Numbered from the stretch's first letter, positions 8,389-46,507 are shown. The stretch is DNA of 64,000 nt from an uncultured Candidatus Rokubacteria bacterium (GCA_963762145.1 CAVXJS010000021.1:832001-896000); one strand, 5' to 3'. The notes: a model not told the origin generated them from the sequence alone. Numbers and translations: made by a program.

Positions 8389-8423
8389 CCCTCTCCCCGA
8401 CGGGGAGAGGGCATGGTGAGGGG
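8389..8423. repeat. REP-like palindromic repeat (CCCTCACCCTGCCCTCTCCCC-N-GGGGAGAGGG family), copy 1
   Basis: CCCTCTCCCC-GAC-GGGGAGAGGG hairpin with GGTGAGGGG tail. Confidence 0.8.
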
Positions 8424-19178: not shown

Positions 19179-19213
19179 CCCTCTCCCCTCTGGGGAGAGG
19201 GTAGGGTGAGGGG
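19179..19213. repeat. REP-like palindromic repeat, copy 2
   Basis: CCCTCTCCCC-TCT-GGGGAGAGGG-TAGGGTGAGGGG. Confidence 0.8.
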
Positions 19214-36484: not shown

Positions 36485-37137
36485 AGCTCCTCCTCGGCCC
36501 CCTCGGCACCAGGCCCCTCACCCTGCCCTCTCCCCAGTGGGGAGAGGGTAGAGGGAGTGAGGTCGCGGACGAAACAGCGCACGTCGCCCAGGTGCTCGTA
36601 GTGCTCGGTGTGGGCTGGCAGGCCGGCCTTCGCCGCGTCGAGCCCGAGTGATCTCAAAACCGGCTCGGTGAGGAGCGCGTAGCCGCCCTTCCGTTCGAGA
36701 CCGTTCTTCAGCAGCCGGTGCACCAGGATGACCGCGGTGCCGGTCACGCGGTTCCGCCCGCCGACCATGTGGCGCAGGAACGGGCCGTGGTGAACCACCA
36801 TCTTGAGATCGAGCGACCCGCTCTGCTGACACGCGCCGCACGGGCAGGTCTCGATTTCCTGCATCGCCCGCTGCCGCGCTTTGAAGGCGGCGAAGGCATC
36901 TTCCAGGACCTCGAGGAGCCGCTCCTTGGGCAATGGAGACCCCTCCCCACCGAGGGCGAACACCGCGTCGCCCTCGATCTCCTGGATCTCGAGCGGCGGC
37001 GACAGGTGCCCGACCACCTCGTCGAGCAGGGCCGCGATGATGTCGGAGCCGTGCTCGAGCTCCGTGGTGGTCACGAAGCGGGTGAAGCCGGACACATCGG
37101 CCAGGATCAGGAATCCGTGATCGGTTCGGTTGTTCAT
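36463..37137 (-). CDS. DUF2652 domain protein (nucleotide cyclase-like fold)
   Basis: ILADVSGFTRF, EIEGDAV, CPCGAC, LKMVVHHG, ILVHRLLKN. Confidence 0.85.
   Translation of the reverse strand: MNNRTDHGFLILADVSGFTRFVTTTELEHGSDIIAALLDEVVGHLSPPLEIQEIEGDAVFALGGEGSPLPKERLLEVLEDAFAAFKARQRAMQEIETCPCGACQQSGSLDLKMVVHHGPFLRHMVGGRNRVTGTAVILVHRLLKNGLERKGGYALLTEPVLRSLGLDAAKAGLPAHTEHYEHLGDVRCFVRDLTPSTLSPLGRGQGEGPGAEGAEEELHPQAIA
36514..36548. repeat. REP-like palindromic repeat, copy 3 (inside the DUF2652 C-terminus)
   Basis: CCCCTCACCCTGCCCTCTCCCC-AGT-GGGGAGAGGG. Confidence 0.85.
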
Positions 37138-38769: not shown

Positions 38770-40344
38770 ATGGCCACCTCCGTCGACCGGTCCCTGCGCC
38801 CCGAGATCAGCACTGCCTATGCGCGCCTCGAGGAGAAGATCCTGGAGCGGGACCAGAAGGGGGCCAGCGACATCTTCTATGACCTGGTGCGGGCCCAGGT
38901 CCCCCTCGCGGAGCTGGCCGGCCAGATCGTCCGCATCCACGCGCCCTACACGCACGTGCCGTACCATCAGCGCCTCGACGACGGCGTGCCGCGGTTCGTC
39001 AACAACGACCACTGCCTGCTCAGCTCCCGCGCCAGCCTCGACCTGATGCCGCTGATGCCGCCCGAGCTGGCCTACCTGCCCTACGCCCAGACCATCTGGT
39101 ACATGCCGACGGGCCTGGATCCCTGGAACCAGCTCCTCGGCAAGATGCCCGGGCACTACGTGCGCCTCTACGAGATCAAGTTCGAGGGCAAGCCGCCCCT
39201 GCCCGAGGTGCACTGGCCGGACCAGGCCCCGCTGCCGATCGAGGGGACGTGGCCCGAGCGGCTCAACACGTGGCTCACGCTCGTGCAGCGCGGCGAGGTC
39301 ATCAACTCCTATCGCGTCTTCCTCGGGCTCTGGGACGAGGCGGTGGGCGACGAGGCGAAGCGCACCACGCTGCTCGCCCAGCTCGTCTTCGCCGGACTCA
39401 TCGACGTGCAGGACCGCGTGCTGCACAATCGCTCCTACACCACCGGCCACAAGTCCTACCGTGCCCGCGCCACCGTGGAGGTCGCGCGCGCGGTGGGCTG
39501 GAAGCACGCGCACTCCATCCTGTACGCGGGCGTGCCCGACATCGCGGTGGGGCCGCGCTGGTACTCGACCTACGAGATGGGCTGCCTCGTGATCCAGAAC
39601 CTGCTCGACGGCCGGGACCGCGAGCTGCTCGAGAACGACCTGCCGCTGACGCCGGTCGAGTCGCTCGCGCTCCAGCAGGCGATCCTGAGCGGCCAGGAGC
39701 CGGCCTTCATCGACCTGATCGTGGCGCTGCTCAAGTCCGGCCGCGGCCACCGCCAGATCATCGACACGATCCAGCTCGCCTCGGCCCAGCTCATCATCGA
39801 GACCGGCGACGTCAACGCCTACTCGATGCCGCAGCACAGCTACGAGTACTGCAACACGGTGCGCTGGTTCTTCGACACCTTCCAGCACCCGCACCGCCTC
39901 AAGCTGCTCTTCGTGGCCGCCGCCTTCGTCACCCGCGCCGCGCACCACCAGAGGCACACCCCGGACAACAACCCGGTGAAGATCGCGCCCCCCAAGGGCT
40001 CCGACGCGCTCACCTCGTCGGAGGTGCTCAAGCGCCTGGACGGCGCGCTCGACGGCCTGCGCGCCTTCGAGGCGATGGACTGGGTCGCCGCCTACCTGCG
40101 AGACGGCGCGGACCGCGGCCCGCTGCTGCAGACGCTCGCGGTGGGTGCGGCGAAGGCGGGCAACGATCCGCACAACCAGGAGCTGGGGATCTGCCTGCTC
40201 GACGACTACCGCCACTCGACCGCGGAGGAGCGCGACCGTCTGCTCTACGCCTCGGCCAAGCACACCGCGGGGCATCGCAAGTACGGCAGCCACCTGGACG
40301 CGTGGCGGCGGTACGCGGACGCCTTCGGCCTCGCCCGCTCCTGA
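38770..40344 (+). CDS. hypothetical 524-aa helical protein with four His-bearing repeats
   Basis: AAGGAG RBS; host-like codon use; family not recognised. Confidence 0.85.
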   Translation: MATSVDRSLRPEISTAYARLEEKILERDQKGASDIFYDLVRAQVPLAELAGQIVRIHAPYTHVPYHQRLDDGVPRFVNNDHCLLSSRASLDLMPLMPPELAYLPYAQTIWYMPTGLDPWNQLLGKMPGHYVRLYEIKFEGKPPLPEVHWPDQAPLPIEGTWPERLNTWLTLVQRGEVINSYRVFLGLWDEAVGDEAKRTTLLAQLVFAGLIDVQDRVLHNRSYTTGHKSYRARATVEVARAVGWKHAHSILYAGVPDIAVGPRWYSTYEMGCLVIQNLLDGRDRELLENDLPLTPVESLALQQAILSGQEPAFIDLIVALLKSGRGHRQIIDTIQLASAQLIIETGDVNAYSMPQHSYEYCNTVRWFFDTFQHPHRLKLLFVAAAFVTRAAHHQRHTPDNNPVKIAPPKGSDALTSSEVLKRLDGALDGLRAFEAMDWVAAYLRDGADRGPLLQTLAVGAAKAGNDPHNQELGICLLDDYRHSTAEERDRLLYASAKHTAGHRKYGSHLDAWRRYADAFGLARS

Positions 40345-40496: not shown

Positions 40497-40751
40497 ATGG
40501 GGTCTCAGAAGCCCCGCGCGGCCGGCGATGATTCAGCAGGCAACGACGCCACCGGGGTGACGGCATTGCTCGCGGAGCTCAGTCCGAGTACCGACTTGCC
40601 GTCGCTGGTCGAACGAGTGTCTCGGAGCGATCTCTCCCGGATCGTGATCCCGGCTGCAACCCTTGCCGCCTGGAAACGACGGGACCCCTCAGGCTTGGCC
40701 AAGGTCCTTACCTGGCTCGAAGCCAAGGGGGTCACGATCGCGGCTACTTGA
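40497..40751 (+). CDS. small hypothetical protein in a lower-GC patch
   Basis: GAGGG RBS; RIVIPAATLAAWKRRDPSG..WLEAKGVTI. Confidence 0.5.
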   Translation: MGSQKPRAAGDDSAGNDATGVTALLAELSPSTDLPSLVERVSRSDLSRIVIPAATLAAWKRRDPSGLAKVLTWLEAKGVTIAAT

Positions 40752-40783
40752 CGGTATCGGCGAACAGGCGCTAGATAAGTCCT

Positions 40784-41527
40784 GTGACTGCCCGCGTCTA
40801 CTACCGCCAGGGCTGAAGCTCCTGCGCCAAGACGAAAGAGTTGCTTTCGTCATGGGGAGTGGCCTTCGAGGGCTTCGACGTCGAGGCCCAGCCGGAGCGC
40901 CGGGCTGACCTCGAAGCGTTTGGCGTGATGCGCGTGCCCGCCACCATCGTGGGGGAGCGCATCGTGCACGGCTGGAACCCGCAGGCGCTGGCCGAGCTGG
41001 TCGGCGTGCGCTATCGCGCGCCGAAGAAGCTGACCCCGGCCCAGCTCGCCGAGCGGATGGACCTCGTCCTGGCCGCGACCCAGCGGGCGATCCGGCAGGT
41101 GCCGCGCGAGCACCTCGGCATGAAGTACCCGGGGCGCGATCGGACGGTGCACCAGCTCGGCTTTCACGTGTTCCGGGTGGCCGCCTCGTACGCGGACACC
41201 CGGGAGCAGGGCAATCTCGACGGCGCCTGGTTCGAGGAGAACGCGCCGCCCGAGATGGCCGACGGCGACGCGGTGGCGCGCTACGGGGAGACGGTCCGCG
41301 CGCGCCTACGGGCGTTCTTCGCGCGGCCCGGGTGGTGCGATGGCGAGGTGAGCACCTACTACGGCCCGCAGTCGGCGCCCGAGTTCATGGAGCGCACGAC
41401 GTGGCACTCGGCCCAGCACCTGCGACAGATTTACTGGTTCCTGGACGAGCTCCACGTGAACAAGGACGCGCCGCTCACCGACGCGGACCTCGAGGGGCTG
41501 CCGTTCCCGCGCGAGGTTTGGTCTTAG
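40784..41527 (+). CDS. putative selenoprotein: glutaredoxin-like (UxxC) domain fused to DinB-like domain
   Basis: GTG at 40784 reads MTARVYYRQG-TGA(40814)-SSCAKTKELLSSWGV, in frame with ORF 40841..41527 (RVPATIVG cis-Pro loop; HQLGFH; WHSAQHLRQ). Confidence 0.82.
40817..40860 (+). promoter_or_regulatory. bacterial SECIS-like hairpin
   Basis: GACGAAAG-AGTTG-CTTTCGTC perfect 8-bp stem starting 14 nt after the UGA; lower CTCC/GGAG pairing possible. Confidence 0.7.
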
Positions 41528-41888
41528 CCCCCTCACCCTGCCCTCTCCCCCTCCGGGGGAGAGGGTTCTTGTTCGCGATGAAGGTGTGGGCCTCGCACAC
41601 CACCTGCTCGACCCGCTTCCAGCTCGGGCGCCCGTCGAGGCGCACCCCCACCCAGCCGCGCACCCCGACGTAGGGCGGCACGAAGAACCGCTCCGAATCC
41701 TCTCGGACGAGCAGCGCCTGGGCGCCGAGCGGCATCGCGAGCCAGACGCCCACGTGCGGGGCGCCGTGGTGATGGTTGTCGAACGTGGCGAACATCCGGC
41801 CACTCACCCAGAACGTGGGCTCACCGTGGGAGATCTTCTCCGCGGTCCCCGGCAGCGCGAGGCAGATGCGCCGCAGACGCGCCAGCAG
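41475..41888 (-). CDS. MmcQ/YjbR family protein
   Basis: RLRRICLALP..SHGEPTF..FFVPPYVG.RGWVGVRLD; start codon unclear; C-terminus runs through a REP. Confidence 0.8.
   Translation of the reverse strand: MLARLRRICLALPGTAEKISHGEPTFWVSGRMFATFDNHHHGAPHVGVWLAMPLGAQALLVREDSERFFVPPYVGVRGWVGVRLDGRPSWKRVEQVVCEAHTFIANKNPLPRRGRGQGEGAKTKPRAGTAAPRGPRR
41528..41565. repeat. REP-like palindromic repeat, copy 4
   Basis: CCCCCTCACCCTGCCCTCTCCCCC-TCC-GGGGGAGAGGG. Confidence 0.85.
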
Positions 41889-42847: not shown

Positions 42848-42883
42848 CCCCCTCACCCTGCCCTCTCCCCTGAGGGGAGAGGG
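42848..42883. repeat. REP-like palindromic repeat, copy 5
   Basis: CCCCCTCACCCTGCCCTCTCCCC-TGA-GGGGAGAGGG. Confidence 0.85.
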
Positions 42884-46467: not shown

Positions 46468-46507
46468 CCCTCTCCCCCGCCGAGGGGGAGAGGGCAGGGT
46501 GAGGGGG
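46468..46507. repeat. REP-like palindromic repeat, copy 6
   Basis: CCCTCTCCCCC-GCCGA-GGGGGAGAGGG-CAGGGTGAGGGGG. Confidence 0.85.

Follow-up and report, generated by a model that had tools for sequence, protein, structure and literature searches.

The closest described counterparts of the gene reported here are the "Grx-like" selenoproteins of the Global Ocean Sampling (GOS) selenoproteome, a family that matches pfam00462 at e > 0.001 and comprises 42 selenoproteins with a UxxC motif and 255 Cys homologues (Table 2 in Zhang and Gladyshev, 2008; PMC2398784). Ten "Glutaredoxin" UxxC selenoproteins are given, with no detail, in the available part of the 2005 Sargasso paper (PMC1088965). Table 1 of a 2026 inventory of prokaryotic selenoproteins has glutaredoxin (Grx; PF00462, UxxC) as experimentally verified, and the accessible text of the same inventory reports 63 predicted selenoprotein genes, a record, in one Methylomirabilota genome (PMC13188914). 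Here we describe a gene on a 64,000-nucleotide stretch of DNA (the "window"; GCA_963762145.1, CAVXJS010000021.1:832001-896000) from a soil Methylomirabilota (Rokubacteria) bacterium. The gene, referred to as Grx-DinB, encodes a glutaredoxin-like domain joined to a DinB-like domain, and has an in-frame TGA at the first position of the redox motif. On comparative sequence evidence we consider it, with a probability of about 0.92, to be a genuine selenoprotein gene in which UGA is read as selenocysteine (Sec, U).

The full-length "#Grx-like" sequences in the portion of Dataset S1 compared here (PMC2398784) have an N-terminal (P/S)(G/H)-U-(S/T)-S-C followed by K-(D/E)-(F/Y)-L. They also have the block ER(T/S)xWHSxQHxRQ and a C-terminal GLPL(P/S)..LW, which by eye fit the invariant columns of the family alignment described below. 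Judged by eye on that portion of the dataset, the Grx-DinB gene appears to belong to the GOS "Grx-like" family and was in that sense already catalogued in 2008. The GOS sequences are marine reads, whereas Grx-DinB comes from a soil genome, and the main text of that paper makes no mention of DinB and treats the family solely as a distant glutaredoxin. The gene is of an expected selenoprotein type, in which Sec stands for the first Cys of a thioredoxin-fold CxxC, and Sec-containing members have been in print since 2008. The fusion is not in Table 1 of the 2026 inventory (PMC13188914). By title and abstract, we found no description of a glutaredoxin-DinB fusion in the literature, nor of a Grx-DinB protein in the literature on Rokubacteria/Methylomirabilota selenoproteins. 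What the comparisons suggest is a widespread, conserved, and uncharacterized family, whose pairing of a Sec/Cys redoxin with DinB we did not find discussed in the literature.

In the frame proposed by a first-pass annotation of this DNA, the TGA at 40814-40816 is directly followed by AGC TCC TGC (S-S-C). With TGA read as U, the frame comprises 247 residues and meets no further stop before TAG 41525-41527. Because an in-frame TAG lies three codons 5′ of GTG 40784, this GTG is the only possible start. When the sequence was re-read, the coordinates given in the first-pass annotation for the GTG, the TGA, a hairpin downstream of it, and the open frame to the TAG all proved exact (Table 1).

Table 1. 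Positions in the window of the Grx-DinB gene, its parts, and the adjacent palindrome.
Feature	Position	Strand	Basis or remark
Full predicted selenoprotein coding sequence, 247 residues, GTG start, TGA = Sec at codon 11, TAG stop	40784..41527	+	TGA read as U
GTG start codon	40784..40786	+	Sole start candidate from upstream in-frame TAG to TGA
Glutaredoxin/NrdH-like thioredoxin-fold domain, residues 4-73	40793..41002	+	PF00462, AlphaFold2 model, Foldseek
UGA Sec codon, first position of U-S-S-C motif (motif 40814-40825)	40814..40816	+	Column is Cys in distant homologues
SECIS-type hairpin, 8-bp stem GACGAAAG/CUUUCGUC, loop AGUUG	40831..40851	+	Minimum-free-energy fold and covariation; starts 14 nt after UGA
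Truncated table-11 open reading frame, 228 aa, TTG start, type of model in public annotation	40841..41527	+	Open reading frame call
DinB/YfiT-like four-helix-bundle domain, residues 85-222	41036..41449	+	Foldseek, profile; PF12867 sub-threshold
His128 codon, first of putative metal-binding His triad	41165..41167	+	≥ 90% conserved in alignment A2
H208-S-A-Q-H212 (HxxxH) within E-R-T-x-W-H-x-A-Q-H-x-R-Q block	41405..41419	+	Both His invariant in alignment A2
GC-rich palindrome CCCTCTCCCCC-TCC-GGGGGAGAGGG	41541..41565	.	14 nt past stop; repeated element, possible terminator shared with convergent YjbR gene

We surveyed the host genome and 60 relatives from two main families (61 genomes), counting as full-length any match with a query start at or before residue 5 and an end at or beyond residue 245. 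A full-length orthologue with exactly one in-frame TGA was found in 42 of the 61 genomes, at identities from 100% down to 47%, and N-terminal fragments at contig ends, with the TGA included, were found in five more. One genome (G029), which is flagged as unpublished, adds only a partial match to this tally, and no claim depends on it. At 29 of 30 fetched loci the TGA lies within G-U-S-S-C, with a conserved (V/L)Y(Y/H/F)R(Q/P/H)G just upstream, and the orthologues start with ATG, GTG, or TTG, 7-15 codons 5′ of the TGA. The first-pass annotation had named homologues unconserved upstream of the UGA as a finding that would speak against a selenoprotein; the codons upstream are in fact conserved at those 29 loci. 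At the thirtieth locus, in a genome of the same genus (L037, G013:C4:89136-89872), the orthologue is in three pieces in different frames, covering residues 3-83 (TGA included), 73-224, and 224-247. Such a break-up reflects a frameshifted pseudogene or else a fault of assembly.

We searched 1.84 billion cluster representatives exhaustively and identified 843 relatives at E values up to 1e-3, 391 of these at E values up to 1e-10. We aligned the query with 44 distant full-length homologues (247-276 aa, 27-40% identical; alignment A2, 45 sequences), and found that the Sec column is an invariant Cys (C11) in all 44. The motif is CSSC in 26 of them, CTSC in 16, and CSAC and CSGC in one each. Other columns invariant in A2 are C14, P52, G194, R204, H208, H212, R214, and Q215, and H128, E203, W207, and Q211 are conserved at ≥ 90%. 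Together with the TGA kept in orthologues and the conserved upstream codons, the Cys at this column bears out the hidden selenoprotein proposed by the first-pass annotation. The best 150 representatives comprise the 44 Cys forms, 51 C-terminally complete proteins whose first residue lies 2-34 residues past the motif ("MKEFLS...", "MLSSW..."), and 55 fragments or others. The starts of these 51 (of 95 C-terminally complete representatives) are as expected of Sec forms truncated by an upstream TGA, and the proteins may be such forms. Metagenome scans for DNA upstream of the distant "MKEFLS..." forms, with alignment A3 and protein P0293 as queries, gave no match.

The single stop-free full-length match in the 61-genome survey is a paralogue that reads RRG-C-SSC, and its genome also holds a Sec form. 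In a maximum-likelihood tree of 73 sequences with a midpoint root, 28 Sec forms and this Cys paralogue make up one clade (support 100/100), and the paralogue is nested, on a long branch, in a 99/97 node of the Sec clade. This topology fits a Sec-to-Cys change following duplication, with the direction left unproven by the midpoint root. The 121-aa database fragment P0236, which is 75% identical over residues 2-72, reads Y-R-P-G-R-S-S-C and has Arg at the Sec column; one reading is a TGA-to-CGA variant. The giant protein P0149 (4561 aa) has 28 separate stretches that match Grx-domain residues 29-78, and looks like a long array of Grx-like repeats.

A bacterial selenocysteine insertion sequence (SECIS) is recognized, according to the available part of the Sargasso paper, as a stem-loop that directly follows the UGA and whose small apical loop includes a G (PMC1088965). 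The hairpin at 40831-40851 agrees with this description, having an 8-bp stem, a 5-nt loop of AGUUG, and a position 14 nt past the UGA. At the DNA level, GACGAAAG (40831-40838) and CTTTCGTC (40844-40851) form a perfect 8-bp inverted repeat around AGTTG, and the hairpin is present in the minimum-free-energy fold of 40811-40875. We aligned 29 orthologous sites, which gave 24 distinct rows, and found the stem paired in 192 of the 192 cells of these rows. Two pairs show compensatory change: pair 28-40 is A-U in 19 rows and C-G in 5, and pair 29-39 is G-C in 14 rows and A-U in 10. A third, 30-38, is a G-U wobble in 3 rows. None of 500 shuffles reached the covariation score, and when the 3′ arm was slid by 1-3 columns as a control, pairing was only 32-60%. 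The loop AGUUG is identical in 28 of the 29 rows. What the first-pass annotation had called a SECIS-like hairpin is thus present, fully paired across the orthologues, and variable at two positions in a manner that keeps the pairing.

The codons AAA, AGA, TTG, and TCA are retained across the hairpin in the orthologues. These codons are rare in GC-rich genomes, and their retention suggests that selection acts at the RNA level. The Cys paralogue (n = 1) reads AAG GAG CTC CTC at the hairpin site, which results in an A-C mismatch and a loop of AGCUC. A covariance model built from the SECIS alignment (R1) and scanned over the whole host genome returned only two significant sites, the Grx-DinB gene (94.5 bits) and the small Grx-like selenoprotein gene described below (43.3 bits). 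No bacterial SECIS family was returned by an Rfam scan of 40700-41000 at E values up to 10. The matches to mir-4526 and sR19 (14 and 9 bits) in Rfam were rejected as chance-level.

All of the 120 best database proteins are N-terminally truncated (215-228 aa, ≤ 92% query coverage), as the first-pass annotation had anticipated in suggesting that the gene would be mis-annotated as truncated. Their names are "hypothetical protein" or none. The name "DinB family protein [Methylomirabilota bacterium]" is given to a 156-aa fragment, one Chloroflexota relative is also called "DinB family protein," and the Cys forms are annotated as "glutaredoxin." All 120 entries treat the TGA as a genuine stop, which would make the actual product a DinB-type protein of 222-228 aa, with the 10 upstream codons being a mini-ORF or an untranslated leader, and candidate starts for such a product do exist past the TGA, at TTG 40841 (which falls within the hairpin loop) and at a GTG at codon 26. 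However, this product would lose strand 1 and the whole redox motif, although Pfam matches from residue 5 and the structural model folds confidently from residue 3. Termination would also leave the protein-level conservation of the upstream codons down to 47% identity, the 44 homologues that read through the column with Cys, and the covarying SECIS-type hairpin 3′ of the TGA without a place. We regard it as extremely improbable. If the TGA is read as Sec instead, the absence of the catalytic N-terminus from all 120 nearest database proteins is a systematic annotation error. Sequence comparison indicates that the family is widespread and includes both Cys and Sec forms, the latter of which are cut short by gene callers. 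A dedicated family model would correct at least hundreds of entries and improve counts of the Methylomirabilota selenoproteome.

Four runs, from four studies, gave contigs across 40786-40861. One is identical DNA, one is DNA of a relative, and two are from metatranscriptome libraries. Among 40 of the 71 contig difference rows, none differs at 40814-40816, which argues against assembly error; neither TGC nor TGT, the codons that the first-pass annotation had named as contrary evidence from reads, appears at 40814 in these rows. A single-protein scan of public genome contigs returned 16 loci, all of them close relatives. Nine are titled Methylomirabilota, Methylomirabilia, or Rokubacteria. The other seven (L058-L061, L064, L068, and L070) carry the titles of unrelated taxa (Nitrosotalea, Verrucomicrobiia, Dormiibacterota, and others) despite 89-94% identity, and are probably mislabelled metagenome bins.

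The host genome (6.26 Mb, 25 contigs) carries the machinery for Sec insertion, the lack of which the first-pass annotation had listed as evidence that would count against it. We identified tRNA-Sec (selC; 69.3 bits, cut-off 47), selA (577 bits), selB (363 bits), and selD (341 bits), the three protein genes all above curated cut-offs. The selD gene (G000:C11:419505-420437, L018) has one in-frame TGA (AYAACAG-U-ASK) and is itself a selenoprotein gene; its UGA is followed by an 8-bp palindrome unlike the Grx-DinB hairpin. The selB, selA, and tRNA-Sec genes are clustered on one strand within 5 kb (G000:C9:751777-756726), and a second selD-like gene with no TGA scores 280 bits (G000:C14:136744-137655).

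These genes bear on whether Cys, Trp, or another standard residue, and not Sec, might be inserted at the UGA through near-cognate suppression or an unusual tRNA. Cys functions at this column in much of the family. But the Sec pathway is complete and selD itself uses a TGA, and the SelB-type hairpin sits at the canonical distance and is maintained by compensatory change. Moreover, TGA is the ordinary terminal stop of several Grx-DinB orthologues, and hence has not been reassigned genome-wide. A lineage that needed Cys could simply use TGC, as the Cys paralogue does. Insertion of a standard residue is therefore very improbable, and decoding as Sec remains the reading that we adopt.

A second, small Grx-like Sec gene is located on the minus strand at G000:C11:432575-432805 (L056), and reads ...VFSSPT-U-GPC-KAAKEFLSS.... 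Its hairpin, GCGAAAG-AGUUU-CUUUCGU, is nearly identical to that of Grx-DinB and is at an equal distance from the UGA. Most of the 60 relatives have small one-TGA Grx-like matches of this kind.

With U read as C, the N-terminal part matches PF00462 over residues 5-60, motif included (41.2 bits, cut-off 22.9, E 2e-10), in agreement with the Grx-like domain of the first-pass annotation. An AlphaFold2 run on the 45-sequence alignment gave a model with pLDDT 94.6 and pTM 0.89, in which residues 3-73 adopt a thioredoxin fold and residues 85-222 a helical bundle. The first of these domains has strands at 3-7, 28-32, 53-56, and 59-62 and helices at 12-23, 37-45, and 66-73, and the redox motif lies where helix 1 begins. 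The invariant P52 is presumably the cis-Pro of the thioredoxin fold. Foldseek matched the N-terminal domain to NrdH (1h75, TMt 0.84) and BC3987 (3zit, TMt 0.87), and the C-terminal domain to YjoA (3dka, TMt 0.77), DR0053 (6iz2, 0.79), and YfiT (1rxq, 0.68), so the proposed DinB-like fold is recovered as a four-helix bundle. By family profile, the nearest solved sequences are glutaredoxin 7c10 (E 5.6e-17, positions 8-86) and 6iz2 (E 6.7e-4). A precomputed PF12867 match is carried by 11 of the 120 best close homologues. No NCBIfam model reached its cut-off for the Grx-DinB protein or for five Cys homologues; the sub-threshold scores for the former include 26.7 against 83 for TIGR03086.

The first-pass annotation had also pointed to a His pattern running from HQLGFH to WHSAQH. 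This holds for H128, which is conserved at ≥ 90%, and for H208 and H212, which are invariant in the 45 family members, but not for H123, the first His of HQLGFH, which falls outside the conserved columns of A2. H128, H208, and H212 may be the counterparts of the YfiT metal ligands, and they form a putative triad of the divalent-metal-binding kind found in the DinB superfamily. A paralogue of the DinB half alone (L057, G000:C13:106888-107385) is 35% identical over residues 66-238; its counterpart of the WHSAQH block is ...ERVAGAAAGQLRVLH..., from which the two His have apparently been lost. Similar DinB-only paralogues occur in many relatives.

Some of the observations count against this interpretation or parts of it. 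As a single sequence, the 65-nt stretch that contains the hairpin is unexceptional (z = -1.6; 16 of 200 shuffles were equally stable or better), so a single sequence gives no proof of the element and the case rests on comparative data. The compensatory changes track clades of the maximum-likelihood tree, so that they amount to perhaps two or three events, not 15 independent ones, and they are accompanied by K/R and S/A replacements in the protein. For the C-terminal domain, PF12867 (DinB_2) scores 21.3 bits over residues 93-216 (E 4e-4), below its gathering cut-off of 24.8. The two RNA-library contigs (X15 and X16) derive from relatives and, since such libraries can contain DNA, are at most a weak hint that the gene is transcribed. 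Finally, gene order is conserved only within the genus, with the VOC neighbour present at 21 of 46 loci and at none from the second family, and the neighbourhood therefore says little about function.

Translation would start at GTG 40784, the hairpin at 40831-40851 would recruit SelB and tRNA-Sec to decode the UGA at 40814 as Sec, and synthesis would run to the TAG ending at 41527. In the 247-residue product, Sec would be the nucleophile of an NrdH/glutaredoxin-like domain fused to a DinB/YfiT bundle with H128, H208, and H212. The DinB metal site may hold a substrate, either a disulfide or an electrophile, for attack by the selenolate. Cys14 could then resolve the adduct to give a selenenyl-sulfide, and an external reductase or thiol would regenerate the enzyme. 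The protein would thus act as a single-chain redox enzyme with a domain order that recalls glutathione transferases. Catalytic coupling of Sec to the putative His-triad metal site is plausible. The suggestion in the first-pass annotation that such a thiol-transferase could recycle its own thiol conjugate reaches further than the sequence evidence.

The two domains might, however, have separate active sites. DinB would then work like the stand-alone DinB/YfiT enzymes, as a metal-dependent S-transferase or hydrolase with a free low-molecular-weight thiol, and the Sec-redoxin would reduce or de-thiolate its products or the protein itself, or relay electrons from a partner of the thioredoxin-reductase type. 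Small Sec-Grx genes and DinB-only paralogues do occur autonomously in the same genomes, and for each half of the model there is a match among solved stand-alone proteins. On the other side, the pTM of 0.89 indicates a fixed, confident inter-domain arrangement, the fusion is retained in the 45 full-length aligned sequences of A2 (27-40% identity to the query), and the His triad is conserved alongside the CxxC/UxxC motif. We hold two separate sites to be a tentative possibility, and a somewhat doubtful one. Coupling of the domains could be extended to a bolder proposal, in which Grx-DinB is an undescribed, GST-like enzyme class where a protein-borne selenolate or thiolate replaces the free low-molecular-weight thiol at the predicted His-triad metal site, two unrelated folds having converged. 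This we think unlikely. If it were true, the protein would be a self-contained detoxifying or reducing enzyme, and roughly half of the lineages may have upgraded to selenium.

Directly upstream of the gene are a 524-aa ORF with no Pfam match (38770-40344, + strand) and an 84-aa ORF. Homologues of the former are recognizable upstream of the orthologue in at least two genomes of the same genus (L027 and L032). Downstream are a convergent YjbR gene, a VOC-family gene, and a MetE-like gene, and the wider neighbours encode a TauD-type dioxygenase, BNR and LVIVD repeat proteins, binding proteins, and a luciferase-like monooxygenase. The annotated neighbourhood contains no nrd genes. The VOC, MetE-like, and luciferase-like genes that the first-pass annotation had cited as a catabolic context are thus present, but their order is kept only in the genus, and operon context was rejected as a functional argument.

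The palindrome that follows the gene is one of 6 copies of CCCTCTCCCC-N3-7-GGGGAGAGGG in the window, where 0 were expected. The other copies are at 8389-8411, 19179-19201, 36526-36548, 42861-42883, and 46468-46494, and those that were placed sit just beyond gene ends. In contigs of a soil metagenome (run X5), depth rises from ~5 to 151 over 41518-41551. The palindrome looks like a repetitive extragenic palindromic (REP)-like element or a shared terminator of this lineage.

Among known systems, the stand-alone Sec glutaredoxins, as given in the accessible text of the 2026 inventory (PMC13188914), and the solved structures 7c10 and 7c12 share with the Grx-DinB protein the fold and the position of Sec first in the motif. 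They are single domains of ~80-85 residues, whereas the Grx-DinB protein has ~165 extra residues of the DinB type and the motif USSC. The N-terminal domain is structurally closest to NrdH and YruB (TIGR02194 and TIGR02196; 1h75, 4hs1, and 3zit), with TMt 0.75-0.87, and these also give the best NCBIfam matches. Membership in either was rejected, as the scores of 35.9 bits for NrdH and 50.9 bits for YruB are far under the curated cut-offs of 85.75 and 88.55. The UXX-star and HUGP/GUXX-star models (NF041212, NF041211, NF047338, and NF045501) show weak similarity to the Grx domain (30.3, 17.9, 19.8, and 13.9 bits), and membership in these families was likewise rejected, with scores far under cut-offs of 66-325 (Uxx_star, 30.3 against 66). 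UXX-star families have Sec near the C-terminus, unlike the Grx-DinB protein, where it is residue 11.

The C-terminal domain shares the four-helix bundle (TMt 0.68-0.79) of the DinB/YfiT superfamily (PF12867; 1rxq YfiT, 3dka YjoA, and 6iz2 DR0053), and its conserved His...HxxxH pattern may correspond to the metal-binding triad there. This superfamily includes metal-dependent bacillithiol, mycothiol, and glutathione S-transferases. Its known members have neither a fused redoxin nor Sec, unlike the Grx-DinB protein. Many canonical glutathione S-transferases (GSTs) also appear in the Foldseek list. Membership among these was rejected, given a whole-chain TM of 0.26-0.35, a root-mean-square deviation of 10-17 Å, and a different fold of the helical domain. 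The likeness to GSTs is instead an analogy of layout, with a thioredoxin-fold domain followed by an all-helical domain as the order common to both.

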